A stretch of DNA of 64,000 nt from an uncultured Candidatus Saccharibacteria bacterium. GTDB lineage: Bacteria > Patescibacteriota > Minisyncoccia > Phycocordibacterales > UBA5272. This document shows positions 9,583-62,385 of this stretch, one piece after another (the first letter of the stretch is position 1; each line of letters opens with the position of its first letter). Made by a program: the position numbers and the translations under genes. The stretch is taken from NCBI GenBank assembly GCA_964546555.1, contig CAZJJX010000006.1, positions 545 through 64,544 on the forward strand, written 5' to 3'. A model generated the notes under the pieces. That model was not told the DNA's origin and made no database searches. It saw nothing but the letters and a program-made list of their open reading frames with translations.

Positions 9583-9975
9583 TTATCTTTCTTTTCTTGA
9601 TTCGATACCAAGGAGGATCTTGTCTGGATTAAATCCAGATTGTTTTGTAATGTAAACCCTAATCCTCCTCTCATCTCTTTTATTGATGTCTTTTGGGACA
9701 AGTGTTACGCCTTCCCAGATTTCTTGAAGGACTGTCTCGCTTAGAACAAACGGCTTTGGTTTTTTCGTTACTTTTGCATCTTGCGCGCGCTTTCTAGCGG
9801 CCTGGCCGATTTCGTTTACTCGTTTCTTGATATCATCCGGTACTTGCTCCCAAGTGCCGTAGCCCAGGAGGCTAGATGTCCTTGTCCTGTTTCTCCAGAA
9901 CCCTCCAACAAAATTCTGTTTTCCTGTTTCGATAAGTTCTAGAGCCATGCGATTAAGTTCGCTTAGACTTCTCAT
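9583..9975 (-). CDS. hypothetical protein
   Basis: I chose the ATG at 9975 (MRSLSELNR...) because an AAGGGG SD precedes it. The ORF track extends to 10038. Confidence 0.5.
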   Translation of the reverse strand: MRSLSELNRMALELIETGKQNFVGGFWRNRTRTSSLLGYGTWEQVPDDIKKRVNEIGQAARKRAQDAKVTKKPKPFVLSETVLQEIWEGVTLVPKDINKRDERRIRVYITKQSGFNPDKILLGIESRKER

Positions 9976-10050
9976 GTGCGCCCCTTTATAATAAAGTTCA
10001 ATCAAAAACACTATACAATATTGTATAGTGTTTAGCAAGGTTTTAGTGGT

Positions 10051-20341: not shown

Positions 20342-20369
20342 AAACCGCGGGACGTACGTCCCGCGGTTT
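20342..20369. terminator. bidirectional terminator, 28-nt perfect palindrome
   Basis: AAACCGCGGGACGT|ACGTCCCGCGGTTT. Confidence 0.75.
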
Positions 20370-29806: not shown

Positions 29807-30856
29807 ATGATTAACCGACTGCTTCGAAATCTTTCTAATGATATTGGTATTGATCTTGGAACCGCTAACACACTTGTTTATGTTCGAGGTCGAGGTATTG
29901 TGATTAATGAGCCATCTGTTGTTGCGCTTAATACAAAGACAAACCGAGTTGTTGCTGTAGGACTTGAAGCAAAGAGTATGATGGGAAGAACCCCGGCTCA
30001 TATTCGTATTGTTCGACCACTAGTAGATGGAGTTATTTCTGATTACGAAGTAACAGAAGAAATGCTTAGCTATCTTATTAACAAAGCAAACGAAATCGAC
30101 CGTAAGCCATTTCGTCCTCGTGTTGTTATTGGTATTCCTGTCGGTATTACAAATGTAGAAATGCGAGCAGTGTATGATGCTGCAAAATCAGCAGGAGCAG
30201 GAAGTGTCTATATTGTTGAAGAGCCGATGGCTGCTGCAATCGGTGTACATCTTCCTATTCATGAACCTGTCGGAAGTATGATTGTTGATATTGGAGGAGG
30301 GACTACTGATATTGCGGTGATTGCTTTATCTGGAGTAGTGCGTGCAAAAAGTATCAAAGTCGCAGGAGATAAGTTAAATGAAGATATCATTACCTATATG
30401 CGTGATGAGTTCAAAATGCTTATTGGTGAAAAAACAGGTGAACATATCAAAACGACGATTGGGTCAGCTCTTCCTGATGAAGAAGGTCAAGAGCTAAGTG
30501 TGAAGGGTCGCGATCTTGTGACAGGTCTTCCTCGTGAGGCAGTTATCACTGATGTTGATATTCGTGAAGCAATGTATGCATCGGTATCGCTTCTTGTTGA
30601 AGCGATACGAGAAGTACTCGAAACAACACCTCCTGAGGTTCTTGCAGATATTATGCAAAAAGGCATAACACTTGCAGGTGGTGGTGCTCTTATTCGTAAT
30701 CTGCCACATCTCCTTGAGATGCAACTTAAAGTGCCTGTATCTGTGGCGGATGACCCTCTTACTGCTGTTGCGCGAGGTACAGGAATTATTCTTGAGAATA
30801 TTCCGCTCTATAAGGATATACTAGTAGAAAATACCGATGACATATCTTTTAGGTAG
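29807..30856 (+). CDS. mreB: rod shape-determining protein MreB
   Basis: DIGIDLGTANTLVY, VVIGIP, MIVDIGGGTTDIAV, ITLAGGGALI are the actin-fold motifs. Confidence 0.95.
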   Translation: MINRLLRNLSNDIGIDLGTANTLVYVRGRGIVINEPSVVALNTKTNRVVAVGLEAKSMMGRTPAHIRIVRPLVDGVISDYEVTEEMLSYLINKANEIDRKPFRPRVVIGIPVGITNVEMRAVYDAAKSAGAGSVYIVEEPMAAAIGVHLPIHEPVGSMIVDIGGGTTDIAVIALSGVVRAKSIKVAGDKLNEDIITYMRDEFKMLIGEKTGEHIKTTIGSALPDEEGQELSVKGRDLVTGLPREAVITDVDIREAMYASVSLLVEAIREVLETTPPEVLADIMQKGITLAGGGALIRNLPHLLEMQLKVPVSVADDPLTAVARGTGIILENIPLYKDILVENTDDISFR

Positions 30857-31628
30857 AGCACAAAAAAAAAGAAATAAGCGCCTCTATGCATTCTATGTGT
30901 GTTTGTTTGTTGTGCTTATGCTTTTCTGGCCATCGATTAAAAAATTTACCTACAAAGTTATTGAGCCTTTGGTAGTGTCTTTTGGGTTATCGCAAACCAC
31001 TTTGTCCCTTGTGCCTGATTTTCTTGAAACATATATCACAACACATAAAGAGCTTTCGGAAGAAAATAAAAAATTAGAACAAAAAGTTGAATCTCTTGAG
31101 AATGCTCTTGCTGACCTTGACGCAAAGATGCGTGATTACCAAGCAGTAACCACGCTCTATGCATCTTCTTCAGAAAAGGAAGGACGTGTCCTTGTAATGT
31201 ACCCGCTTATGCAAGATATAACACGAATCTATTCTACAATCATGCTCTCAAAAGGTTTTAAAGATGGTCTTGATGTTGGCACTATAGTCTACATACGAGG
31301 TAACCAGGCAGCATGTGTTGTTCAAGAAGTCTTCCCGTTAACATCAAAATGTCTTTTGTATACATCATACGGTGTGGTAACAGAAGGCGTTACCTCTTCA
31401 TCTTCTGTCGTGCTCACGCTTACCGGAAGAGGTGGTCACTATATGGCTGATGTTGTAAGAGATACACCCGTATCAAAAGGTGAGACAGTGTATTTACGTA
31501 GTAATCCAAAAATTGTCATAGGGACAATACAAGAAGTTTCTAATAATAACCAGGATACGTCATGGCACATTTTTGTTAAGAGTGCGTATAATCCAAGTAC
31601 AGCATCAGTTTTTTATGTACAGCAATAA
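30837..31628 (+). CDS. mreC: rod shape-determining protein MreC
   Basis: Position after mreB, N-terminal TM helix, coiled coil (EENKKLEQKVESLENALADLD) and a beta-rich C-terminal domain. Confidence 0.7.
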   Translation: MTYLLGRAQKKRNKRLYAFYVCLFVVLMLFWPSIKKFTYKVIEPLVVSFGLSQTTLSLVPDFLETYITTHKELSEENKKLEQKVESLENALADLDAKMRDYQAVTTLYASSSEKEGRVLVMYPLMQDITRIYSTIMLSKGFKDGLDVGTIVYIRGNQAACVVQEVFPLTSKCLLYTSYGVVTEGVTSSSSVVLTLTGRGGHYMADVVRDTPVSKGETVYLRSNPKIVIGTIQEVSNNNQDTSWHIFVKSAYNPSTASVFYVQQ

Positions 31629-31797
31629 GAAAACAAATCCAATGATTACTACGATATGTGTATGGACACTTATTGTCATTGCCTTTTTTATGGATGTCAT
31701 TTTCGGAAGTATGAGGATACCTATTTTTACAACAATAGTTTGTGCTATAGTAACGTTATATGAATGTATTTCGCCGTATATCTATAAGGCGCGCTAG
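31615..31797 (+). CDS. small membrane protein in the mreD position (identity uncertain)
   Basis: 60 aa from ATG 31615 with two hydrophobic helices. It is much shorter than typical MreD. Confidence 0.3.
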   Translation: MYSNKKTNPMITTICVWTLIVIAFFMDVIFGSMRIPIFTTIVCAIVTLYECISPYIYKAR

Positions 31798-33499
31798 GGC
31801 ACAAGCATCTCACGAGATTGACCCTGAAGATGTTTTTTTGGATTCACAAAATCTATCCAATTTAAACGTAGATCAATTAGAAGGTCAACTAGAAAGGCCG
31901 CTTGGTAAACATATTTTTTATATTGCGCTTATTGTATCATTTGTTATTGTGTTTGGTTTTTCGTACAGACTTTTTGCGATGCAAGTAATCCAAGGTGAGG
32001 ACTATGAAGAAAAGGCAAACAATAACCATCTCAAAAAATTACCCCTCTTTGCACTCCGTGGGACTATCGCTGACCGCAACGGTGAACTCCTTGCCTGGAA
32101 CTCAACACGAATGCTTGAAGAGGGTACTTCAACAGATCAGGCACCAAAAAAAGATGACGATATACCGAAGCGTGTTTATATAAAGGAAAAAGGATTTTCG
32201 CATATTCTTGGTTATGTAAGTTATCCAAAGCGCGATCAGTCAGGAGTCTTTTGGCAAGATGAATATGTCGGTAAAGACGGTATAGAAAAACAGTACCAAC
32301 AAGAATTAGCAGGAGTAAAAGGTGAACGCATTATTGAAGTGACGGCACGTCATGAAGTCGAGGCACAGAATGTTGTCGTATATCCAAGTCATGGTATCAA
32401 CCTTAAACTTTCTATTGATAAAGATGTACAAGCAAAATTATACGAACGTATAGAAGCGCTTGCAAAGAAGGCGTCGTTTACTGGTGGTGCGGGAGTTATT
32501 ATGGATGTGACTAATGGAGAAATACTTGCGCTAACAAGTTACCCGGAATATGATAACAATCTTATTACAAACGCAACAACAAAAGAGGAAAAAGCAACTG
32601 TTGCAGAAGATCTCTTGGATAAGAGAAGAAAATTCCTCAACCGAGCAGTTGGTGGATTATTCACTCCTGGGTCTACTGTTAAGCCGTTTTTTGCATACGC
32701 TGCACTTGCAGAAGGTATTATTACTCCTGAGAAAAATATTTACAGTAGTGGCAAGCTTGTGATTAAGAACAAATATGGGGGTCCTGATACTGTTTTTAAG
32801 GATTGGAAAGCGCATGGTTATGTTGATATGCGTGACGCTATAGCTGAGTCATCAGATGAATATTTTTATCAAATAGGAGGAGGGTACCAAGATCAGAAGG
32901 GACTCGGTATTGCACGTCTTGATGCTTATGCGCAGAAGTTTGGGTTTTCAAGTAGTACAGGAATTGATCTACCTGGTGAAGAAAATGGAATCATACCAAC
33001 TCCAGAGTGGAAGAAGAAAGTGTTTGGCGAAGATTGGCTCTTAGGTAACACGTATCACTCATCAATTGGGCAGTATGGTTTCCAGCTTACCCCGCTTGAA
33101 CTCGTGAGAGCTGTAGCATCTCTAGCAAATGGTGGCATACTTGTGACCCCACATCTTGCGGTAGGTCTACAGACTTCTACATCATCACTTGAGCTTAACA
33201 AGAGTCAACTTAAGATAATTCAAGAAGGTATGTTACAAGCGGTTGAAGGTGAAAAAGGTACAGCGCGAGCTCTTGATATAAAAGGTGTAAGCATTGCTGC
33301 AAAATCAGGAACTGCAGAACTAGGTGTGAGTAAGCAACTTGTTAATTCTTGGATTACAGGATATTTTCCGTATGAGAAACCACGATATGCATTTGTGGTG
33401 ATTATGGAAAAAGGTGATAGGCATAATCCATTTGGTGCTGTATTTGCTGCACGCGAGACGATTGAATGGATGCGGGATAATACTGACTATACAAAATAA
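31760..33499 (+). CDS. mrdA: penicillin-binding protein 2 (elongation transpeptidase)
   Basis: N-terminal TM helix, PBP dimer domain, GSTVKPF (SxxK), SSD, KSGTAE (KxG). Confidence 0.9.
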   Translation: MNVFRRISIRRARAQASHEIDPEDVFLDSQNLSNLNVDQLEGQLERPLGKHIFYIALIVSFVIVFGFSYRLFAMQVIQGEDYEEKANNNHLKKLPLFALRGTIADRNGELLAWNSTRMLEEGTSTDQAPKKDDDIPKRVYIKEKGFSHILGYVSYPKRDQSGVFWQDEYVGKDGIEKQYQQELAGVKGERIIEVTARHEVEAQNVVVYPSHGINLKLSIDKDVQAKLYERIEALAKKASFTGGAGVIMDVTNGEILALTSYPEYDNNLITNATTKEEKATVAEDLLDKRRKFLNRAVGGLFTPGSTVKPFFAYAALAEGIITPEKNIYSSGKLVIKNKYGGPDTVFKDWKAHGYVDMRDAIAESSDEYFYQIGGGYQDQKGLGIARLDAYAQKFGFSSSTGIDLPGEENGIIPTPEWKKKVFGEDWLLGNTYHSSIGQYGFQLTPLELVRAVASLANGGILVTPHLAVGLQTSTSSLELNKSQLKIIQEGMLQAVEGEKGTARALDIKGVSIAAKSGTAELGVSKQLVNSWITGYFPYEKPRYAFVVIMEKGDRHNPFGAVFAARETIEWMRDNTDYTK

Positions 33500-34194: not shown

Positions 34195-34266
34195 GTTAGT
34201 TACACATACTAGACAAAACTAATAATACCATGTAGTGTTGTGATAGGTGTTTTTTTGGAGGTCCAT

Positions 34267-34977
34267 ATGAGCCAGTCACCGTTTCTAATGTCTCGTCCTT
34301 TGGAATTTCCTGTGCTTGATGAAGTTGTTTCAGAAGGGTTCCATAAAATTTCTTTTATAAACCCTTTTCGAGAAGACAGAGATCTTCTTGATGGAAATGA
34401 CTTTTTTCAAAAAATTCCAACATTACATGCTGCTAGTATTAAAAAAATTATCACTGCATATGTTCTCTCAGATGATGTGGTCTTTAATGAGTTTGTGCGG
34501 AGAGATTCACAAGCGATAGAGTACTATCTTGATCTCTATCAAGGAAACTTTAAGGGTCGGAAAGGTGTTATTGAAAAAATTCAAAAATCTCACTTAACAA
34601 TTCTTTTTTATCAATATCTTCAAAAAAGAATTCCTGAATGTATTGAGTTTCTTGAAGAGCAAATTGATAAAGTATTTATCCAAGAAAGTGATGGAGTTCT
34701 TTCGTATGACATGGCACTTGTGCTTAGTAATAAGGCACGTACTGCGTACGACACAGTCACTGCATTGTCTAACAGAAACTTATCAGGTATCGATTTTCAA
34801 AAAATTGATAACAGTACTTCGCTTCGACACTATATATATCTTTGGACATTGTTAGTGTATCTTGCAGGGCTTGATAAGAAATTTGATAAAAAGCCTGAAG
34901 AAAAGAAACAGCTAAAGGAACAAGCTCTTTCACGGCTCAAGACAATACTTAGAGTTTGGTGCGTTGAAAAATCTTGA
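34267..34977 (+). CDS. hypothetical protein
   Basis: ATG 34267 is preceded by a GGAGGT SD. 236 aa with no recognisable motif. Confidence 0.5.
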   Translation: MSQSPFLMSRPLEFPVLDEVVSEGFHKISFINPFREDRDLLDGNDFFQKIPTLHAASIKKIITAYVLSDDVVFNEFVRRDSQAIEYYLDLYQGNFKGRKGVIEKIQKSHLTILFYQYLQKRIPECIEFLEEQIDKVFIQESDGVLSYDMALVLSNKARTAYDTVTALSNRNLSGIDFQKIDNSTSLRHYIYLWTLLVYLAGLDKKFDKKPEEKKQLKEQALSRLKTILRVWCVEKS

Positions 34978-34991
34978 CGATTAATGTTGCT

Positions 34992-35022
34992 AAAACCTCA
35001 CATCCAAATGTGAGGTTTTTTT
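34992..35022 (+). terminator. rho-independent terminator
   Basis: AAAACCTCACA-TCCAAA-TGTGAGGTTTTTTT. Confidence 0.85.
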
Positions 35023-35080
35023 GTGTGACATATTTGTTCATATGTTGATTTTTTAGTAAAAATTCAATTTTAGTTATTAT

Positions 35081-35147
35081 CCACACAATTGTGTGGTGAA
35101 TCTGTGCCAAAGTGGGGTATAATGGGGAGCAGTGGGGCAAAGTGGGA
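35081..35147 (+). promoter_or_regulatory. mraZ promoter/operator: 16-bp palindrome plus a 10-bp-phased AGTGGGG repeat array
   Basis: CCACACAATTGTGTGG (35081-35096). Then AGTGGGG 35111, AATGGGG 35121, AGTGGGG 35131 and AGTGGGA 35141, with TATAAT (35118-35123) embedded. Confidence 0.65.
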
Positions 35148-35167
35148 GTTTTGCTTCGCTAAGAGAT

Positions 35168-35602
35168 ATGTTAATCGGAAAGTACACACACGACCTAGAT
35201 CCAAAAAAAAGACTTACGCTACCATCAAAGTGGCGCACTGATCTAGGGAAAAAAGTGGTTGTAACTAACGGATTAGATAGTTCATTGTTTGTTTTTCCTA
35301 TCGAAGAATGGGAAAAGATGGCACAGAAACTTTCTGAAGGAGGTTTTGGAAATCAAGACAGTCGAAGTTTTAATCGCTTCATGCTTGGTAATGCGTTTGA
35401 GACAGATGTTGATTCTGCTGGACGTATTGTTATACCAGACTCACTCAAGACATTCGCAAAGCTCTCATCAAAAGTTGTACTCGCTGGAATGTATTCGCGA
35501 GTAGAGCTCTGGGATGAGGCGCTCTGGGATGCAAACATTGCAAAAGTAAATAACGAAGCTGATGTTCTTGCCTCAAAACTAAATGACCTTGGAATAATCT
35601 AG
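35168..35602 (+). CDS. mraZ: division/cell wall cluster transcriptional regulator MraZ
   Basis: MLIGKYTHDLDPKKRLTLPSKWR and a second SpoVT-AbrB half, DSAGRIVIPDSL. Start taken at ATG 35168. Confidence 0.9.
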   Translation: MLIGKYTHDLDPKKRLTLPSKWRTDLGKKVVVTNGLDSSLFVFPIEEWEKMAQKLSEGGFGNQDSRSFNRFMLGNAFETDVDSAGRIVIPDSLKTFAKLSSKVVLAGMYSRVELWDEALWDANIAKVNNEADVLASKLNDLGII

Positions 35603-35610
35603 TACGAGCT

Positions 35611-36501
35611 ATGCATATCCCTGTACTTTTACAAGAATCAATAGAAGGTTTGCGTATCAAACCTGACGGCATCTATGTTGACTGCACAACTAACCGCGGT
35701 GGACATAGTAAAGAGATACTCAAAGTTCTGGATGAACGTGGTGTCCTTATCTGTATCGATCTTGATCAAGAAGCGTTACAGGAAGCACGTGAAATTCTCG
35801 AGAAAGAGTCACCAAAGGCAAAAATACATTTTATTGTATCCAACTTTAGACATTTAGCTTCTATTCTCAAAGATTTGAAGATAGAACGTGTCGATGGAAT
35901 ACTTGCTGATCTTGGTATCTCTTCGCAAGAGCTTGATGATTCAAAGAGAGGGTTTTCATTTAGATTTGATGAACCGCTCCTTATGACATTTTCAGCTAAG
36001 CCGGAAGAAGATATGACAACCGCATATGACATCGTGAACTTCTGGAGCGAATCAACAATTGCAGATGTACTCTATGGATTTGCAGATGAAACATATGCAC
36101 GACGTATTGCCAAAAGAATCGTAGAGAAAAGAATAGAATCACCGATAAAAACTACATTTGAACTCGTTGATATCATTGCCTCATCGGTTCCGGCTGTGTA
36201 TCGTCACAAAAAAACCCACTTTGCCACAAAAACATTCCAAGCACTTCGTATGGCGACCAACGACGAACTTGGCAGCGTAAGCGAACTTATCGATACATTA
36301 CCGACAGTGCTAATGGGGGAAGGTAGAGCATGTATCATTACCTTCCACAGTACAGAAGATAGAATTGTAAAACATAAACTTCGTTCCTATCAGGAAACAC
36401 TTAAACCAATTACTAAAAAAGCAATTATCCCAACAAACGAAGAGATAGATGCAAATGTTCGCGCAAGAAGTGCTCAATTAAGAATCGTTGAAAGAATTTA
36501 A
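35611..36501 (+). CDS. rsmH: 16S rRNA (cytosine1402-N4)-methyltransferase RsmH
   Basis: HIPVLLQE, YVDCT...GGHS, DLGISS.QLD...RGFSF, ITFHS.EDR.VK. Confidence 0.95.
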   Translation: MHIPVLLQESIEGLRIKPDGIYVDCTTNRGGHSKEILKVLDERGVLICIDLDQEALQEAREILEKESPKAKIHFIVSNFRHLASILKDLKIERVDGILADLGISSQELDDSKRGFSFRFDEPLLMTFSAKPEEDMTTAYDIVNFWSESTIADVLYGFADETYARRIAKRIVEKRIESPIKTTFELVDIIASSVPAVYRHKKTHFATKTFQALRMATNDELGSVSELIDTLPTVLMGEGRACIITFHSTEDRIVKHKLRSYQETLKPITKKAIIPTNEEIDANVRARSAQLRIVERI

Positions 36502-36537: not shown

Positions 36538-36855
36538 ATGAATCTCACTTACACTTCAAAAACTTTTTATGAACGAGCAGTTCATACTATGCTTGGCACA
36601 TTGTGTATTCTTGCGCTAGTGTACTGTGCCGTTCTTCTTTCACTTGTTTTTTCTGTCATTGAGCGTAAGCAAAATACAATCGCTTCTCGTGATCTTTCTT
36701 CACAGCTTTCTTCTTATGAAGCAAAGTATGCAAATACTGTTGCGTCAATCTCAGAAACAGACCTTTCGTCACATGATTTTGTACGTGTTGATAATGCAAC
36801 ATTTGCAGTTCGTAAAGATGATATAGCAAGTTATACTGTGCTCTATGCACGCTAA
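36538..36855 (+). CDS. FtsL-position single-pass membrane protein
   Basis: 105 aa with one TM helix, located between rsmH and ftsI. Assignment is by position only. Confidence 0.4.
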   Translation: MNLTYTSKTFYERAVHTMLGTLCILALVYCAVLLSLVFSVIERKQNTIASRDLSSQLSSYEAKYANTVASISETDLSSHDFVRVDNATFAVRKDDIASYTVLYAR

Positions 36856-38608
36856 TTCTGGTCGTCAAAAATTTCCTACGCTTTCTCGTGATCAGGAGAT
36901 GCGTTCAAAAAGTAGAATCGATATGGTTCTTTTGGCGCTCCTTGTACTTACACTTATCATAGTATCAAGAGCTTTTTATATTCAAGTAGTTAAGCATGAG
37001 TACTACACTGAACTTGCTGATAAACAATATGTTTCTAAAATTCCTATCAACTTTGATCGTGGGAATATTTATTTTTCCCGCTACAAGAGCACGGTAGTTC
37101 CTGTGGCGCAACTAAAGACAACTTATAGAATCGCTATAGATCCGGCACAGATTACAAACGCAGAGACGTTGTATAAGCGTCTAAGTGAAGTCCTTCCTTC
37201 GCTTGATAGAGATGCTTTTATTGCAAAGGCAAGCAAAGTAAATGACCCATATGAAGAAGTTGCAAAAAATGTCTCAGAAGAAGATGTGGCAGTTTTGCGT
37301 ACAAAAAAACTTGCAGGAGTTACTTTTGTAAAAGATAATAAGCGGTCATATCCTCAAGATACTATCGGTGCTAAGGTGATCGGTTTTGTTGGCTCTGATG
37401 GTGTTCATGTAAGAGGACAGTATGGTCTTGAGCGATACTATGATGATATTCTTACACGTAAGAGTAATGATATGACCGTTAACTTTTTTGCAGAGCTGTT
37501 TACTGACATTCAAAAGACGATTATTTCAAATACTGATAAACAAGAAGGTGATATTGTGCTTACTATTGATGCTGAAGCAGAGCGTGTCTTACATCAGACA
37601 CTTCTTGAGACTAAGAAAACATGGAATTCGGATACTATAGGTGGTATCATCATGGATCCAAAAACTGGGAGGATTATTGCGATGGACGGATTGCCAACCT
37701 TTAACCCAAATGATTTTACGCAAGTAAAGAATTCTCAAGATTTTGCAAATCAAAATGTCTCAGGAGTGTACGAAATGGGTAGTATTATTAAGCCAATTAC
37801 CATGGCGTCTGCTCTTGATGCTGGTGTGGTCAGTGAGTCTACAACATATGATGATACAGGTTTTCGTGACCTTAATGGTTACAAGGTTCGTAACTTCGAT
37901 GGCAAACCTCGTGGTAAGGGCACAACGATGCAGATGGTCCTTGACCAGTCACTTAACGTTGGTATCGTATTTTTGGTTGAGCAGTTAGGAACAAAGCGAT
38001 TCCAAGAGTACTTTAAGAGATTTGGTATAGGTACAGAGACTGGTATCGATCTACCAACAGAGGCAAGTGGTCTTACAAAAAATATCGAAAGTCCTGTTCT
38101 GGTTGATAATGCAACTGCTGGTTTTGGGCAAGGTATTGCAATTTCTCCTATCCAAACAATCCGTGCTCTCGCTGTCCTTGGTAACGGGGGTAAACTTGTG
38201 TCACCACATGTTGTTGATAGTATTGTTTATCAAAATGGTGATGTTAAGAAAATGGCCTATGAAGACGGTGAGCAGGTAATTAGCGCTTCCACAAGTGAGA
38301 GAGTTTCTCGTATGCTTGTGCATGTGGTAGATACAGCACTTCAGAAAGGTGCAATGAAAATGGATCGTTATACCATTGCTGCAAAGACCGGCACCGCACA
38401 GATGGTAAAGCCAGGGGGAGGGTATTATGAGGACAGGTACCTCCACTCTTTCTTTGGCTATTTTCCTGCATATGATCCTAAGTATATTATTTTCCTTTTT
38501 CATACGTACCCAAAAGGTGCAGAGTATGCTTCAGCAACCCTCACCGACCCATTCTTTAAGCTTGTAAAATTCTTGATTAGTTACTACGAATTGCCGCCTG
38601 ACAGATAG
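36845..38608 (+). CDS. ftsI: peptidoglycan D,D-transpeptidase FtsI-type PBP
   Basis: N-terminal TM helix, GSIIKPIT (SxxK), SLN, KTGTAQ. The start could instead be ATG 36899. Confidence 0.9.
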   Translation: MHANSGRQKFPTLSRDQEMRSKSRIDMVLLALLVLTLIIVSRAFYIQVVKHEYYTELADKQYVSKIPINFDRGNIYFSRYKSTVVPVAQLKTTYRIAIDPAQITNAETLYKRLSEVLPSLDRDAFIAKASKVNDPYEEVAKNVSEEDVAVLRTKKLAGVTFVKDNKRSYPQDTIGAKVIGFVGSDGVHVRGQYGLERYYDDILTRKSNDMTVNFFAELFTDIQKTIISNTDKQEGDIVLTIDAEAERVLHQTLLETKKTWNSDTIGGIIMDPKTGRIIAMDGLPTFNPNDFTQVKNSQDFANQNVSGVYEMGSIIKPITMASALDAGVVSESTTYDDTGFRDLNGYKVRNFDGKPRGKGTTMQMVLDQSLNVGIVFLVEQLGTKRFQEYFKRFGIGTETGIDLPTEASGLTKNIESPVLVDNATAGFGQGIAISPIQTIRALAVLGNGGKLVSPHVVDSIVYQNGDVKKMAYEDGEQVISASTSERVSRMLVHVVDTALQKGAMKMDRYTIAAKTGTAQMVKPGGGYYEDRYLHSFFGYFPAYDPKYIIFLFHTYPKGAEYASATLTDPFFKLVKFLISYYELPPDR

Positions 38609-43730: not shown

Positions 43731-43789
43731 GTTTTAATACATAAGAGAAATTTAGTTATCCACAAGAAAATTCTTGTTGTTCTATTGCA

Positions 43790-43807
43790 CTAGAACATTT
43801 GTTCTAG
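43790..43807. promoter_or_regulatory. LexA operator (Cheo-type SOS box)
   Basis: CTAGAACATTTGTTCTAG is a perfect 8+2+8 palindrome containing GAAC-N4-GTTC. It ends 12 nt before the lexA ATG and overlaps TAGTAT. Confidence 0.8.
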
Positions 43808-43819
43808 TATGCTAAAAGT

Positions 43820-44383
43820 ATGAAAGACAAAGAAGTAGTATCAGAATTTTTTATTGAACATAACCGTATGCCAACATACGAAGAGATGAAGTCACTCTTT
43901 GGAGTAGCGTCCAAAAACACCGTCGCCTATAGAGTCAACAAGCTCCTCGAAGAAGGATTCCTTCTGAAAGATGGCACCAAGCTCATGCTCGCAGAGACAG
44001 GATCGGTAATGCGGCTGAGCACAGTGCAAGCAGGATTTCCAACCGCAGCAGATGAGGATGTTGAGACAGAACTACTCTCCCTTGATGACTTCCTGATAGA
44101 ACGAAAACAGAGTACATATATGCTAGAAGTCCAAGGGGAGTCGATGATAGATGCAGGGATATTAGAAGGAGATCTGGTTTTGGTAGAAAGAGGAAGGACG
44201 CCGCGAAGGGGAGATATCGTACTAGCCCTCGTCGAGAATGAATATACACTTAAATATCTCGAAACAGAAAATGGTAAACCAGTTCTTGTTCCCGCAAACA
44301 AAGCATTCAAGAAAATTTATCCGAATCCAAATAAGTTACGCATTGAGGCGGTATTAAAAGCAGTAGTCCGAAAGTACAGGTAA
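43820..44383 (+). CDS. lexA: LexA repressor (S24 peptidase)
   Basis: Winged-helix N-domain, Ala-Gly cleavage site (VQAGFP), GESM (Ser) and TLKY (Lys). Confidence 0.9.
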   Translation: MKDKEVVSEFFIEHNRMPTYEEMKSLFGVASKNTVAYRVNKLLEEGFLLKDGTKLMLAETGSVMRLSTVQAGFPTAADEDVETELLSLDDFLIERKQSTYMLEVQGESMIDAGILEGDLVLVERGRTPRRGDIVLALVENEYTLKYLETENGKPVLVPANKAFKKIYPNPNKLRIEAVLKAVVRKYR

Positions 44384-44566: not shown

Positions 44567-45016
44567 ATGACAACACCTAACACAACACGCGCAATACTAC
44601 GCATTACAGCAGGAGGGAAGAACACCTCACGTATCAACTACGCTCGTCGCATGTATGCTATCATCAGACGCTACACACCAGAGGCTGCAGTTGGTATGCA
44701 TAATGAATGTTATGCAGAGCTAACCGGTCTTCGCACTTTCTTCAAGATGACATATGCAGAACTCGCAGAGAGTATCGTAAGAGATCTCAAGAAAGAAATT
44801 GGCATCTCTTTTACGATAAATGTTGCAAAAGCAATCGAGTTCGATGCTGTGCGTACGGCTTCTAAAAAGTCAAAGCAAATCTCTACGTACAAAGAAATCA
44901 ATACTCTTTTCAGAGGAGCTTCATTTGTACCTAGAGAAGATAGAACAAGTATCCGTCGTACGCTCCGTGCACGTCGTATTAGATTAAGTGTCCCTTATCT
45001 TGGTAAGGTGGCATAA
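44567..45016 (+). CDS. collapsed Y-family DNA polymerase-like ORF (probable remnant, catalytically incomplete)
   Basis: IRRYTPEAAVGMHNECYAELTG aligns with the Y-family ..RYT..VE..SIDEAYLDLTG motif (D to N). GISFTINVAKA corresponds to v.S.GiA.nk.LAK, and it ends at VPYLGKVA (the IPGVGKV HhH). The N-terminal DxD motif and the little finger are absent. Confidence 0.5.
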   Translation: MTTPNTTRAILRITAGGKNTSRINYARRMYAIIRRYTPEAAVGMHNECYAELTGLRTFFKMTYAELAESIVRDLKKEIGISFTINVAKAIEFDAVRTASKKSKQISTYKEINTLFRGASFVPREDRTSIRRTLRARRIRLSVPYLGKVA

Positions 45017-58425: not shown

Positions 58426-61400
58426 CTAAGGAGTCTGTTTAAGGCGCTTTATCTCATTTACAGCAAGGGTTTTTTCTCCGTTACGCGTAGATATTTTTCC
58501 TTTAACAACTAAAGGAACATCAAGGGTAAGTAGGTCTTTATAGCGTTTGTAGCTCTCAGGAAATACTGCAACCTCGATAAATCCTGTATAGTCACGTAAG
58601 GTCACAAGACCCATTTTGTCTCCTTTTTTAGTAATCGTCACTTTAATAGCTTCTATAATAACAGCAATAGATACTTCGTTACCGTCGAGTCCATGTGAAT
58701 GAATTTTTTCTATATCAAGATTACGAGCAAGTATCTTTTCTTTCCAAGGGTCAAGAGGAAAACCAGAGACAAAGAGTCCAAGAAGTTCTTTTTCCCACTG
58801 AAGTCTTTGTTTTTGTGAAGCGGGGGCGACTTTTTTCATAACAAATGAAGATTCTGTAGGAATGTCAAATAGACTATTCTGTAAAATATTATCTTTCACA
58901 ACATGCTTATGAAATTCAAGTATGCTTTCAAGGTTTGCAAGAATCTCATTTCTTTCAGCAAAACTATCCAAGGCTCCACACATTGTGAGTGCTTCGAGAG
59001 ATTTTTTATTAAGATTCTTATGAGTTATTCGTCTAATAAAATTTTCAAATGAAGTGAAAGTTCCACCTTTTCTTCGCTCTGCGATGATTGCGTCTGATAT
59101 GTCGACCCCAAGATTTTTAACTGTGTAAAGTCCAAAACGGATTTCTTCTTTTCCTTCATTATTTGTGACAATACTGAAGCCACCTTCACTCATGTTTACG
59201 TCAGGCGGCAATACAGTAATGCCCATTCTTTTACACTCTGACACAATTTCAGAAATTTTCTCAACATCCCCACTTTCATTAGTAAGAATAGCTGTCATGT
59301 ATGCAACAGGGAAGTTTGCTTTCATATATGCAGTTTGATAAGCAACTCGTCCGTAACTAGCAGCGTGAGCTTTATTAAAACCATACGCGGCAAACGGCTC
59401 AATGAGTGACCAGAGTTCCTGACTTTTTTTTGCTGTAAGTCCATGTTCTAAGAATCCTTCCATGAGCTTTTCTTTTTGAGCTTGCATTTCTGCTGGGATT
59501 TTTTTACCCATAGCTTTTCGAAGCTTATCCGCTTCAAGCCATGAATATCCAGCAAGATGGATGGCAATAAGCATTACGTCATCCTGGTACACAATCACTC
59601 CAAATGATTGATCGAGAATTGGCTCAAGACGCTGATCAAGATAGTGTACTAGCTCTGGGTTTTGCTTACGCTTAATATACTCTGGGATCATTTCAAGTGG
59701 TCCAGGACGATACAGTGCTACCATAGCATTAATATCAAAAATCGTTGTAGGTTTGAGTTCTTTTAGAAAGCGTGTCATACCTGATCCATTTAATTGGAAG
59801 AGCCCCATTGTCTCACCTCGTGCGAGCATGGAGAATGTTTTTTCATCTTCGAGTGAAATATTTTCTATATCAACATCAATGTTATAGCGACTTTTTGTAA
59901 GCGCGATTGCATCCCCAAGAATGGTGAGGTTTCGAATACCCAGAAAGTCAAACTTAAGAAGTCCTGCATCTTCGATGGTGTACATATCATACTGAGTAAT
60001 AATTTTTCCACCCTTAGGGTCTTTTTGTATTGGAGTAAAATCCCAAAGTGGTAGTGGTGAAATAACTGTTCCAGCGGCATGAACAGAAATATGTCTCGCA
60101 CAACCTTCTACTTTTTGTGCCATGTCGAGAATATCTTGGGTCTCTCTATCTGTGTCGTATGCCTCTTTTAATTCAGGTATTTCCTCTAGTGCACCAGCAA
60201 TAGTAACAGGGAACCCTTGTTTAGGTGGGGGAATCATTTTACTTATTCGGTCTCCGACAACATAGGGATATTTCATTGCGCGTGCAACATCACGTACTGC
60301 ACCACGAGCCATCATTGTTCCAAATGTTCCAATTTGTGCAACGTTATCAATCCCGTATTTCCCGCGCGCATAATCAATAACTTCGTCACGCCGGGTGTCA
60401 GAATAGTCCATATCAATATCAGGGGCTGAAGGGCGTTCGGGGTTAAGGAAGCGCTCAAAGGGCAGTTTGTATGATATCGGGTCACATTTAGTTACTTGTA
60501 GCAAATAAGTTACAAGAGATCCTGCAACAGAACCTCTAATATTTGTCAGGATTCCATTTTCTCTGGCATAGCGAAGCAAATCGTACACAACCAAAAAGTA
60601 AGGGGAGTATCCTTTATCCGCAATAACTTTTAACTCATACTCAAGACGTACTTTTACAGCATCTGTTAGCTCTAACTTACGAATACTAAGTCCCGCATAA
60701 GCAAGATCACGTAGATCCTCATTGTAACTTTTTTTATATTCAATTGCAGGGAAAACCCACTTACCTAAAGGAATTTCTAGATCACATATGTCTGCAATTT
60801 TTAAGGTGTTCTCAAGCGCTCCAGGAACCTCTTTGAAGAGATCGGGTATATCGGTCTCAAATGAAAATGTATCCTTTGCAAAAATGTGATTATATTCTTC
60901 AAGAGAATGTTCCTCGCCATTAACCAGGTATAAGATCTTTTGTGCAGGTTTGTCGTGGTGGTTTAGATAGTGAGTATTCCATGTTGCAACAAGGGGGATA
61001 GATGTTTCTTGTGCAAATTTAATTGTTCGTCTTGTGAGTTCATCAGCATTATCTATATTTTTTTGTGGATTAATTTCAAGATAATAAGACTCTGGAAAAT
61101 TTTTTTTGTAAAAGTCTAAGCGTTTAGCTGCAAGAGTTGTATCAACCATGAGCAAATTTGTTATATCACCCCAGAGTCCACCTGAAAGCACGATAAGTCC
61201 AGACGCATAGGTGCTTAATATTTCATCTGTGAGAATAGGTGAAAGTGGATTATCTACGTTTACAATAGATGTGATTCTCATTAAGTTTTTATAACCGTCC
61301 ACATTTTTTGCAATAAGAACAAGTTGATATTTTCTGTCGTCAACCTTAATTGTAAATTCAGCACCCACAATTGGCTTAATACCTTCTTTTTTGCAAGTAC

Positions 61401-61551
61401 TAAAAAACTCAATAGTTCCGTACATGTTGCTGTAGTCGGTAAGCGCAACTGCTGGCATTGAAGCATTCTTGGCTGCCTTTATAAGATCTGGAACTTTTGG
61501 CAAAGCACGGAGAAGGGAATAGTGAGAATGGTTTCGAAGATGGATAAACAT
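58426..61551 (-). CDS. dnaE: DNA polymerase III subunit alpha (DnaE)
   Basis: PHP domain (FIHLRNHSHYSLL), PDIDMDY, GLLKFDFLG, FNKAHAASY, and an OB fold at the C-terminus. Confidence 0.95.
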   Translation of the reverse strand: MFIHLRNHSHYSLLRALPKVPDLIKAAKNASMPAVALTDYSNMYGTIEFFSTCKKEGIKPIVGAEFTIKVDDRKYQLVLIAKNVDGYKNLMRITSIVNVDNPLSPILTDEILSTYASGLIVLSGGLWGDITNLLMVDTTLAAKRLDFYKKNFPESYYLEINPQKNIDNADELTRRTIKFAQETSIPLVATWNTHYLNHHDKPAQKILYLVNGEEHSLEEYNHIFAKDTFSFETDIPDLFKEVPGALENTLKIADICDLEIPLGKWVFPAIEYKKSYNEDLRDLAYAGLSIRKLELTDAVKVRLEYELKVIADKGYSPYFLVVYDLLRYARENGILTNIRGSVAGSLVTYLLQVTKCDPISYKLPFERFLNPERPSAPDIDMDYSDTRRDEVIDYARGKYGIDNVAQIGTFGTMMARGAVRDVARAMKYPYVVGDRISKMIPPPKQGFPVTIAGALEEIPELKEAYDTDRETQDILDMAQKVEGCARHISVHAAGTVISPLPLWDFTPIQKDPKGGKIITQYDMYTIEDAGLLKFDFLGIRNLTILGDAIALTKSRYNIDVDIENISLEDEKTFSMLARGETMGLFQLNGSGMTRFLKELKPTTIFDINAMVALYRPGPLEMIPEYIKRKQNPELVHYLDQRLEPILDQSFGVIVYQDDVMLIAIHLAGYSWLEADKLRKAMGKKIPAEMQAQKEKLMEGFLEHGLTAKKSQELWSLIEPFAAYGFNKAHAASYGRVAYQTAYMKANFPVAYMTAILTNESGDVEKISEIVSECKRMGITVLPPDVNMSEGGFSIVTNNEGKEEIRFGLYTVKNLGVDISDAIIAERRKGGTFTSFENFIRRITHKNLNKKSLEALTMCGALDSFAERNEILANLESILEFHKHVVKDNILQNSLFDIPTESSFVMKKVAPASQKQRLQWEKELLGLFVSGFPLDPWKEKILARNLDIEKIHSHGLDGNEVSIAVIIEAIKVTITKKGDKMGLVTLRDYTGFIEVAVFPESYKRYKDLLTLDVPLVVKGKISTRNGEKTLAVNEIKRLKQTP

Positions 61552-62385
61552 ACAATTTAACTATTACGAGATAGATATATAGCAACTAGTTTAGCAGAGT
61601 AATTTGAAAATGCAGTATTCAAAATGTGAAGAGGCGATAGTCAAAAATAAAGTGTACCTTTATATGAAATAGAACGCTCTATACAACATTTACATTGTCG
61701 TGGTGGATTACATACAGTCTCTCCGCATCAATTATATTTATGGATTTTAAAGATAAAATAACTATTAGATGATGCAGAACATTTAATACTACATTTTTAA
61801 ATCAACAAATATTTAAATATTAGAAAATACGGAATAATAAACTAAAAAATAAGTAATAGCATAAAACGTAAGTAGGGTGTCACCTAAAGCTTAAAATAAT
61901 AAAGCGTCACGGTTACAAATTTAGATCATGATTGATCTATATAGTTTTAAATTATCTTCTATTACAATCATACTAATTTATTGGTAAGCAGCAAAAAATT
62001 GGGTGTTCTAATTATTTTTAAATATTCCATTTTACATTTTATTTACAATGTATTTTAACTATTAGGTTTATTCTAATATAATTGGTATTTTATTTCTGCT
62101 TTTGCATTACCAATAAATTTGTTCTCTATTTGTTTTGATTTCATTTTGGTTATTTTTATATTTTGAATAAAATTATATTTTAAAAATCGGTCATTAGTAG
62201 ATTCTAAAAATTGTTGCTTTTTTGATTTAATTTTTAGTCATATTTTAGATGTATTGTTTTGTGCCAATTTTGTATTTATTACTTTTTAAAATAAGGTTTT
62301 TCTAAATGTACTTTATCCACAATTTTTTCACAGTTTAGTATGTACTTAAGCAGCATTTTTACTATACTTATTTACATATAAATTC

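Follow-up and report, generated by a model that had tools for sequence, protein, structure and literature searches.

Two questions are raised by the mraZ promoter region of an uncultured bacterium of the candidate phyla radiation (CPR): whether a short array of direct repeats in front of the gene is the operator of MraZ itself, and whether a second factor reads the same promoter. The array lies in a stretch of 64,000 nucleotides of contig CAZJJX010000006.1 (assembly GCA_964546555.1), which is called the window below and to which all positions refer. The results suggest that the site is very probably the promoter-operator of a four-gene division operon, mraZ-rsmH-ftsL-like-ftsI, with an MraZ operator and autorepression at its core. 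By its sequence, this is a standard MraZ operator in a CPR lineage, and its particular feature is an array that straddles the -10 hexamer. A first-pass annotation of the window had called the repeats very likely the MraZ operator, and the follow-up analysis supports this view: the downstream gene is mraZ, the published box core and spacing are matched, the residues that contact the DNA are kept, and the array is conserved in 52 of 57 promoters. A DnaA-box-like element and a small hairpin in the 5' untranslated region (5' UTR) accompany the array and are considered after it.

A four-box array around the -10 hexamer

Four boxes with an xTGG core follow one another on the plus strand at an exact 10-bp period, with cores starting at 35112, 35122, 35132 and 35142. 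Box 1 (AGTGGGG, 35111 to 35117; core GTGG, 35112 to 35115) adjoins the -10 hexamer, and box 2 (AATGGGG, 35121 to 35127; core ATGG, 35122 to 35125) has its first bases in common with it. Box 3 (AGTGGGG, 35131 to 35137; core 35132 to 35135) contains a spurious GTG start codon, and box 4 is AGTGGGAG (35141 to 35148; core 35142 to 35145). The hexamer itself, TATAAT at 35118 to 35123, is embedded between boxes 1 and 2; the ATG of mraZ (35168) follows 45 nt downstream. A reading of positions 34700 to 35700 confirmed every string and coordinate given at first pass, including the four direct repeats with exact 10-bp phasing around TATAAT. Two degenerate repeats further upstream (35091 and 35102) had been described as lying in the same phase. 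Their GTG cores, at 35093 and 35104, are 19 and 8 nt from the core of box 1 at 35112, and 35102 is only 9 nt from 35111; being out of phase and unconserved, these repeats were rejected as extra boxes.

The array is not a product of chance, since three RTGGG units at a 10-bp period were absent from 100 dinucleotide-preserving shuffles; in the 64 kb, this site is the sole one (two overlapping matches). A search of the window with the pattern GTGK-N6-GTGK-N6-GTGK, with one mismatch allowed, also recovered the array.

The source names of homologues and loci put the organism among the Paceibacteria/Parcubacteria of the CPR. A scan of a genome collection with an MraZ alignment gave 56 loci from species representatives of GTDB, and the addition of the window brought the set to 57 sequences. 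When these were anchored on GTGGnnTAnAAT, 52 of the 57 fell on one consensus, AAGTGGgGTATAATGGgt..tAGTGGGGgaaaGTGGGAg, and counts out of 52 refer to these promoters. The motif [GA]TG[GT] is found at offsets 0, 10, 20 and 30 in 52, 49, 49 and 49 of them, respectively, with GTG[GT] at the offset of box 1 in all 52. The register of the boxes is kept even in promoters where as many as 228 nt separate the array and the ATG, and the bases after GTGG vary freely in genuine boxes (GG, AG, TG, GA). The five loci that could not be anchored are the most distant homologues (at most 56% identity, PVC (Planctomycetes-Verrucomicrobia-Chlamydiae) bacteria among them). Four of these five were inspected, and each carries its own 10-bp-phased GTGG or GTGT array. 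Alignment of the regions upstream of mraZ, which had been proposed as a check, therefore found the repeats conserved among relatives.

TATAAT is near-invariant over 49 aligned relatives, whereas the other spacers are variable, which argues for separate selection on this sequence as a -10 hexamer. The location of the hexamer between boxes 1 and 2 accounts for the ATGG core of box 2. Transcription is predicted to start at 35130 to 35131, 7 to 8 nt after the -10 hexamer. A putative weak -35-like hexamer, TGGTGA (35094 to 35099), lies 18 nt upstream of the -10 hexamer, and a weak Shine-Dalgarno-like AAGAG (35161 to 35165) may serve translation. A terminator scan located the intrinsic terminator of the upstream gene, which runs from 34992 to 35019 or 35026 (plus strand; 12-bp stem and T-run), which isolates the mraZ promoter as a transcription unit of its own.

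The product of the downstream gene (35168 to 35602, plus strand, 144 amino acids, true start ATG 35168) is MraZ, as it matches Pfam PF02381 at 5e-31 and the equivalog TIGR00242 with 128 bits against a cutoff of 98. It aligns without gaps to MraZ of Mycoplasma genitalium (9qlr) over residues 1 to 102, and likewise to the M. pneumoniae structure, so that D11, K13, R15, D82 and R86 all occur under the same residue numbers; these five residues are invariant among 17 relatives. Thus, both DXXXR motifs and the base-contacting K13, R15 and R86 are present in the window's protein. On the same strand follow rsmH (35611 to 36501), an open reading frame (ORF) of 105 amino acids in the position of ftsL (36538 to 36855), and an FtsI/SpoVD-like penicillin-binding protein (PBP) gene (36845 to 38608). 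This gene order is the same in relatives. A photolyase gene lies directly after ftsI, so the unit comprises four genes, as in Bacillus subtilis.

Comparison with known MraZ operators and proposed mechanism

MraZ operators in the literature consist of GTG(G/T) boxes with 6-nt spacers, usually three in number and four in M. genitalium (PMC12957436). The repeat count and helical phasing of the window's array had been considered striking; both are the norm for such operators. In a cryo-EM study of M. genitalium, Sanchez-Alba et al. showed four MraZ subunits on four boxes (2026, PMC12957436). K13, R15 and R86, positioned by D11 and D82, read TG(T/G), and box mutations caused a stepwise loss of binding and repression, with electrophoretic mobility shift assays (EMSA), reporter assays and cryo-EM in support of cooperative binding and of repression (PMC12957436).

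Compared to the operator of M. genitalium, the window's array shares several features. First, four direct boxes stand immediately upstream of mraZ in each, with GTG(G/T) as the core, 6-nt spacers and a 10-bp period. Second, the transcription start lies in or beside a box, as mapped inside a box in M. genitalium and as predicted in the window. Third, the contact residues D11, K13, R15, D82 and R86 are the same, and A-rich bases precede the core, as in AAAGTGG. The two also differ. The cores in the window are GTGG followed by G or A (GTGGGG, GTGGGA), whereas those in M. genitalium are GTGT. In the window, the -10 hexamer stands between boxes 1 and 2, box 2 is ATGG, and boxes 3 and 4 are predicted to be transcribed. 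In the window, furthermore, the array stands together with a conserved DnaA-like box and a hairpin in the 5' UTR, and its walled CPR host has an operon that includes ftsL-like and ftsI genes.

By analogy with M. genitalium, an opened MraZ oligomer would have four of its subunits on the array, each reading one TG(G/T) core in the major groove through K13, R15 and R86. The four boxes would lie on one face of the helix, at about -19, -9, +2 and +12 from the predicted transcription start. Bound MraZ would then span about -19 to +17, a coverage expected to keep RNA polymerase off the -10 hexamer and the start site. The outcome would be negative autoregulation of the operon.

MraZ direct repeats in Pmra of E. 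coli were reportedly described by Eraso et al. in 2014. In E. coli K-12, Pmra (89480 to 89640) reads TTGACA...TAAACT...AGTGGGAAATTGTGGGGCAAAGTGGGAATA, with GTGGG-type boxes at a 10-bp period as in the window. The 16-mer GTGGGGCAAAGTGGGA, at 35132 to 35147 of the window, is identical in E. coli Pmra and covers the spacer as well as the boxes. Unlike those of the window, the E. coli boxes number three and all lie downstream of the -10 hexamer (TAAACT), and the promoter has a consensus -35 hexamer (TTGACA); the 150 nt inspected there contain no DnaA-box core. The same four-gene unit is found in B. subtilis as mraZ-mraW-ftsL-pbpB. Its GTGG-type boxes are three, as opposed to four in the window, and read GTGG[A/T]G with 4-nt spacers; repression there needs R15 and R86 (10.1101/2022.02.09.479790).

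Several observations weigh against an autorepressing MraZ operator at this promoter. First, the core of box 2 is ATGG instead of GTGG, and the box is missing from 3 of the 52 promoters; yet ATGG retains the TGG trinucleotide that is contacted in the M. genitalium cryo-EM structure. Second, a scan of positions 34800 to 35400 for the sigma-70 consensus called no promoter. The reason is that the -35 hexamer is too weak for the threshold, though the -10 hexamer is perfect, and the promoter assignment therefore rests on the conservation of TATAAT. Third, MraZ has been reported to act as an activator in M. gallisepticum, and the direction of regulation is thus not certain.

The MraZ operator is textbook knowledge, and its presence in CPR bacteria, with a 16-mer identical to that of E. 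coli, mainly confirms its universality. The four-box form, however, has been described as a peculiarity of Mycoplasma, and it is the rule in a large uncultured class. In addition, a -10 hexamer inside the array would provide a clean mechanism of occlusion.

A DnaA-box-like element upstream of the array

The exact 9-mer TTATCCACA at 35077 to 35085 (plus strand) matches the DnaA-box consensus TTATNCACA, as the first-pass annotation had noted. Its predicted position is about -54 to -46, and its core, TATCCACA, occupies 35078 to 35085. Near-invariant in 50 of the 52 promoters, the core is invariant in 48 to 50 of 50 relatives and lies 30 to 33 nt upstream of TATAAT across them, while its flanks are unconstrained. 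The suggestion of a second regulator at this promoter is therefore upheld through this core only, and not through the palindrome that had been put forward with it.

In the window, the exact 9-mer TTATCCACA occurs three times against about 0.8 expected. All three copies are intergenic, co-oriented with the next gene and 64 to 91 nt upstream of its start; the next genes are mraZ, an S24-peptidase LexA-like gene (43820) and a large surface-protein gene (62386). Among six 20-kb loci of relatives, intergenic copies of TATCCACA were found only at the mraZ and LexA-like promoters. A role of TATCCACA as a general promoter element was rejected, since the remaining copies, both in 289 kb from loci of relatives and in the six 20-kb loci, fall within coding sequence, for example in the Tyr-Pro-Gln (YPQ) codons of ftsI. 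DnaA-box 9-mers with up to one mismatch are present at chance density (21 in the window against 19.95 expected), by which an origin-like cluster is rejected. The site was also discarded as part of oriC, being a single box among unclustered one-mismatch matches.

The second exact copy (43756 to 43764, plus strand) opens the promoter (43756 to 43819) of the LexA-like gene (43820 to 44383), which is followed by a short IMS/Y-family-polymerase ORF (44567 to 45016). In this promoter, TTATCCACA is followed by a conserved GTTCTATTG and by the SOS-type palindrome CTAGAACATTTGTTCTAG (43790 to 43807). The site is conserved in syntenic relatives, and the promoter was also noted in L057, L059/L060 and L067-L094. 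In 26 metagenomic loci, the box reads TATCCAC[AT] in 20, TTATCCCCA in 5 and TTATACACA in 1, and either 17 or 27 to 28 nt separate it from the GAAC-N4-GTTC SOS-type box, two classes one helical turn apart. The third exact copy (62313 to 62321, plus strand) lies 73 nt upstream of a long plus-strand ORF that runs from 62386 to beyond the end of the window.

Taken by its sequence context, TATCCACA has the behavior expected of a site for a trans-acting factor whose regulon is small. The best candidate for this factor is DnaA, with TATCCACA most likely a single high-affinity DnaA box; we would give this identification about an even chance. If DnaA were to bind there, the replication status of the cell would modulate the mraZ promoter. 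B. subtilis offers a precedent, in that DnaA binds the promoter of yllB(mraZ)-ftsL and reduces expression from it when replication is blocked (Goranov 2005, cited in PMC2533591, PMC8203912 and 10.1101/2022.02.09.479790). The Paceibacteria have one box at a near-fixed distance (30 to 33 nt) from the -10 hexamer, conserved in about 50 species.

Several findings do not favor DnaA. The first T of the 9-mer is a T in only 28 of 50 relatives, there is a single box per promoter and no cluster, and TTWTNCACA is not matched by the TTATCCCCA variants found at the LexA-like promoter. Two distant relatives (L048, L051) use GTGGATAA as an in-phase direct MraZ box. Furthermore, neither dnaA nor oriC was seen among the window ORFs scanned.

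A possible but less probable alternative is that the match to the DnaA box is coincidental, and that TATCCACA is read by another, clade-specific transcription factor or is an upstream element contacting RNA polymerase. The single box per promoter suits this proposal, as does the third site, which precedes a surface-protein gene without a replication link. The two spacing classes at the LexA-like promoter, one helical turn apart, would be expected of a factor touching RNA polymerase from one face. However, the core agrees exactly with the near-universal DnaA box, and TTATACACA and TTGTCCACA, both observed as variants, are known DnaA-box forms (E. coli R2 and actinobacterial boxes). A division operon together with an SOS-type cassette would also make a coherent replication-stress regulon, and control of the mraZ/ftsL promoter by DnaA has the precedent in B. 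subtilis cited above.

It is improbable, at a good deal longer odds than the coincidental match, that TATCCACA represents a fifth, inverted MraZ box (reading TGTGGATA on the minus strand), binding a second MraZ assembly or aiding DNA looping. GTGG does appear on the opposite strand; in L048 and L051, GTGGATAA is a direct, in-phase member of the array; and an extra AAGTGGGAG abuts the element in L036 and L045. Yet eight positions of the element are invariant, including TAT, whereas genuine boxes vary after GTGG. The distance to box 1 drifts by 3 nt, hence there is no phase lock, and in L046 the orientation is flipped without the element coming into phase. Moreover, the same 8- to 9-mer is conserved at the LexA-like promoter, where no GTGG array exists. 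A DnaA box remains the preferred assignment for TATCCACA.

Further arrangements around the element were noted in individual relatives. About 70 nt upstream of TATAAT in L036 and L045, the extra AAGTGGGAG borders directly on the ATATCCACA element, so that the two read AAGTGGGAGATATCCACA. In L043, L044 and L047, TTGTGGG is found a few bases upstream of the element, with which it forms an inverted repeat, and L049 carries two tandem copies of the element (TATCCACAGCTTATCCACT).

Other explanations of the promoter sequence

The array could also be regarded as a G-quadruplex-forming sequence. The four G-tracts (GGGG-N6-GGGG-N6-GGGG-N6-GGG, 35114 to 35146) would fold on the non-template strand, and the fold itself, rather than MraZ binding, would be the selected feature. 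This is the sole canonical motif of four G3+ tracts with N1-7 loops in the 64-kb window. There is also a counterpart in the mraZ promoter of Staphylococcus aureus, whose G-quadruplex folds in vitro and mediates repression by the ligand N-methyl mesoporphyrin IX (NMM) (PMC11796246). The two promoters are alike in having a G-rich repeat region beside the mraZ promoter that satisfies the motif. Unlike the case of S. aureus, however, this potential is unconserved in the window's clade: four G3 tracts are kept in only 16 of the 52 promoters, and GGG is present in box 1 of 27 and box 2 of 28, while xTGG cores at the 10-bp period are kept in 49 to 52. Selection has thus acted on the boxes and not on the potential to form a quadruplex, and the motif arises in the window mainly because all four boxes happen to carry GGG. 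A selected quadruplex is accordingly an unlikely explanation of the array, and MraZ boxes account for it better.

The first-pass annotation had also drawn attention to the perfect 16-bp palindrome CCACACAATTGTGTGG at 35081 to 35096, which overlaps the DnaA-box-like element. Its string and position are correct; its regulatory significance is not borne out, and it is judged incidental. According to 200 Markov-1 simulations, about 1.1 perfect 16-bp palindromes are expected per 64 kb. This palindrome is absent from all 56 relatives, even those with a 92%-identical MraZ, as its right arm is a replacement: the window has TTGTGTGG where relatives carry TTTTCTAG. That a perfect inverted repeat within the promoter region is the operator of a dimeric regulator is therefore very unlikely, given its chance expectation, its lineage-specific right arm and the conservation of the left arm alone, which is the core of the DnaA box.

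The sequence that relatives carry in place of the right arm is itself of some regularity. In most of the relatives L001-L045, TTTTCTAG is fixed at 21 to 22 nt upstream of TATAAT (-41 to -34 from the predicted transcription start), which is too far upstream for a canonical -35 hexamer; it is absent from the window at 35088 to 35096. The motif is similar to one half, GTTCTAG, of the SOS-type box in this clade.

Translation of the repeats as an N-terminal extension of MraZ is hardly credible: the frame from GTG 35132 into mraZ is open, and several relatives' gene calls include peptides such as MGLSGAKWE, but outside the residues encoded by the repeats these extensions agree neither in length nor in sequence, gene calls for most homologues give 144 amino acids, M1 of the ATG-35168 product is where both the MraZ profile and the PDB structures begin, and in many relatives the array is 100 to 228 nt upstream of the ATG. 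In the ORF list, GTG 35132 opens a frame of 156 amino acids; the suspicion that this start is wrong is supported, as the Pfam and PDB alignments begin at the methionine encoded by ATG 35168. Most of the 567 MraZ homologues have 144 amino acids. Many database entries of the clade are called at 146 to 183 amino acids, with N-termini such as MGLSGAKWE and MGPSGGKWE, because gene callers choose the in-frame GTG inside operator boxes. Since callers repeatedly start mraZ inside its operator, many database entries carry false N-terminal extensions.

A hairpin at the predicted 5' end of the transcript

The first approximately 30 nt of the predicted transcript fold into a small conserved hairpin, probably a stabilizer of the 5' end. 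Its conserved core (35137 to 35154, plus strand) pairs GCAAA(G) with (T)TTTGC and holds box 4 (TGGGAG) in the loop. The full minimum free energy (MFE) stem pairs 35131 to 35142 with 35149 to 35160. In the hairpin, the spacer that separates box 3 from box 4 is paired with bases immediately following box 4. For RNA starting at 35131, the MFE is -12.9 kcal/mol (z -3.6).

Comparison of the arms and alifold revealed compensatory stems across relatives, namely GCAAA/TTTGC, GCGAA/TTCGC, GGAAG/CTTCC, GCAT/ATGC and GAGAT/ATCTC. As the MAFFT alignment of the UTRs is ungapped and two stem registers are present, covariation was tested by swapping arms between sequences and on a subset with a single register. 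Cognate arms gave a mean stem of 5.94 pairs compared with 4.42 +/- 0.22 for swapped arms, with a maximum of 5.10 in 1000 swaps. In the single-register subset, 90.7% of cells were paired versus 83.1% in shuffles, none of 500 shuffles reached that level, and slid controls paired at 72% at most. The core has only 5 to 6 pairs, and the purine-rich and pyrimidine-rich arms create the high pairing background seen in the shuffles (83%); both points speak against the hairpin. Nonetheless, because the arms covary and are not fixed, the structure of the transcript is the likely object of selection, and because RNase J is encoded in the window, a stabilizing 5'-terminal stem-loop is the preferred interpretation. 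Rfam and tRNA scans of the window returned one tRNA-Gln only and no known RNA family at the 5' UTR.

A possible three-part switch

Collectively, these elements may be arranged as a three-part switch at the Paceibacteria division promoter: a single DnaA box at about -50, a four-box MraZ operator around the -10 hexamer, and a 5'-terminal hairpin displaying box 4. At the LexA-like/Y-family-polymerase promoter, the same DnaA-like box would occupy the same face of the helix, at about -50 or -60. This combined proposal is tentative and falls somewhat short of even confidence.

The link between replication and division has been called poorly understood (PMC8203912). Should DnaA be the factor that reads these sites, the initiator of replication would tie replication status directly to both division and the damage response, in organisms that have very few regulators. 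Such an arrangement, if true, would be a conserved, sequence-defined version of a coupling seen experimentally only in B. subtilis. The DnaA-box core equals the MraZ boxes in strength of conservation and is found again, with helical phasing, at the LexA-like promoter; thus, it provides a testable handle on replication-division coupling. The organisms concerned cannot yet be grown alone.

Additional features of the window

At the LexA-like promoter, a candidate -10 hexamer, TATGCT (43808 to 43813), stops 6 nt short of the ATG, which may make the mRNA leaderless. The ORF from 62386 has collagen-like GxY repeats (GPAGKDGRDGKDGVNGRDG) and no Pfam match. The third copy of TTATCCACA that precedes it lies in an AT-rich intergenic region of 834 bp, and on the far side of this region is the divergent dnaE (58426 to 61551, minus strand).

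The window contains four palindromes of at least 16 bp against 1.1 expected. Two of these are perfect over 28 bp, far longer than chance allows: AAACACTATACAATATTGTATAGTGTTT at 10006 to 10033, inside an ORF called at 9583 to 10038 on the minus strand, and AAACCGCGGGACGTACGTCCCGCGGTTT at 20342 to 20369.

[quoted passage not shown] Upstream of the mraZ promoter, the neighbors are mreB-mreC-PBP2 (29807 to 33499), greA and then an ORF of 245 amino acids without a family match (34240 to 34977). In place of this ORF, relatives carry a gene for a tRNA synthetase of the aspartyl/asparaginyl (AspRS/AsnRS) type.

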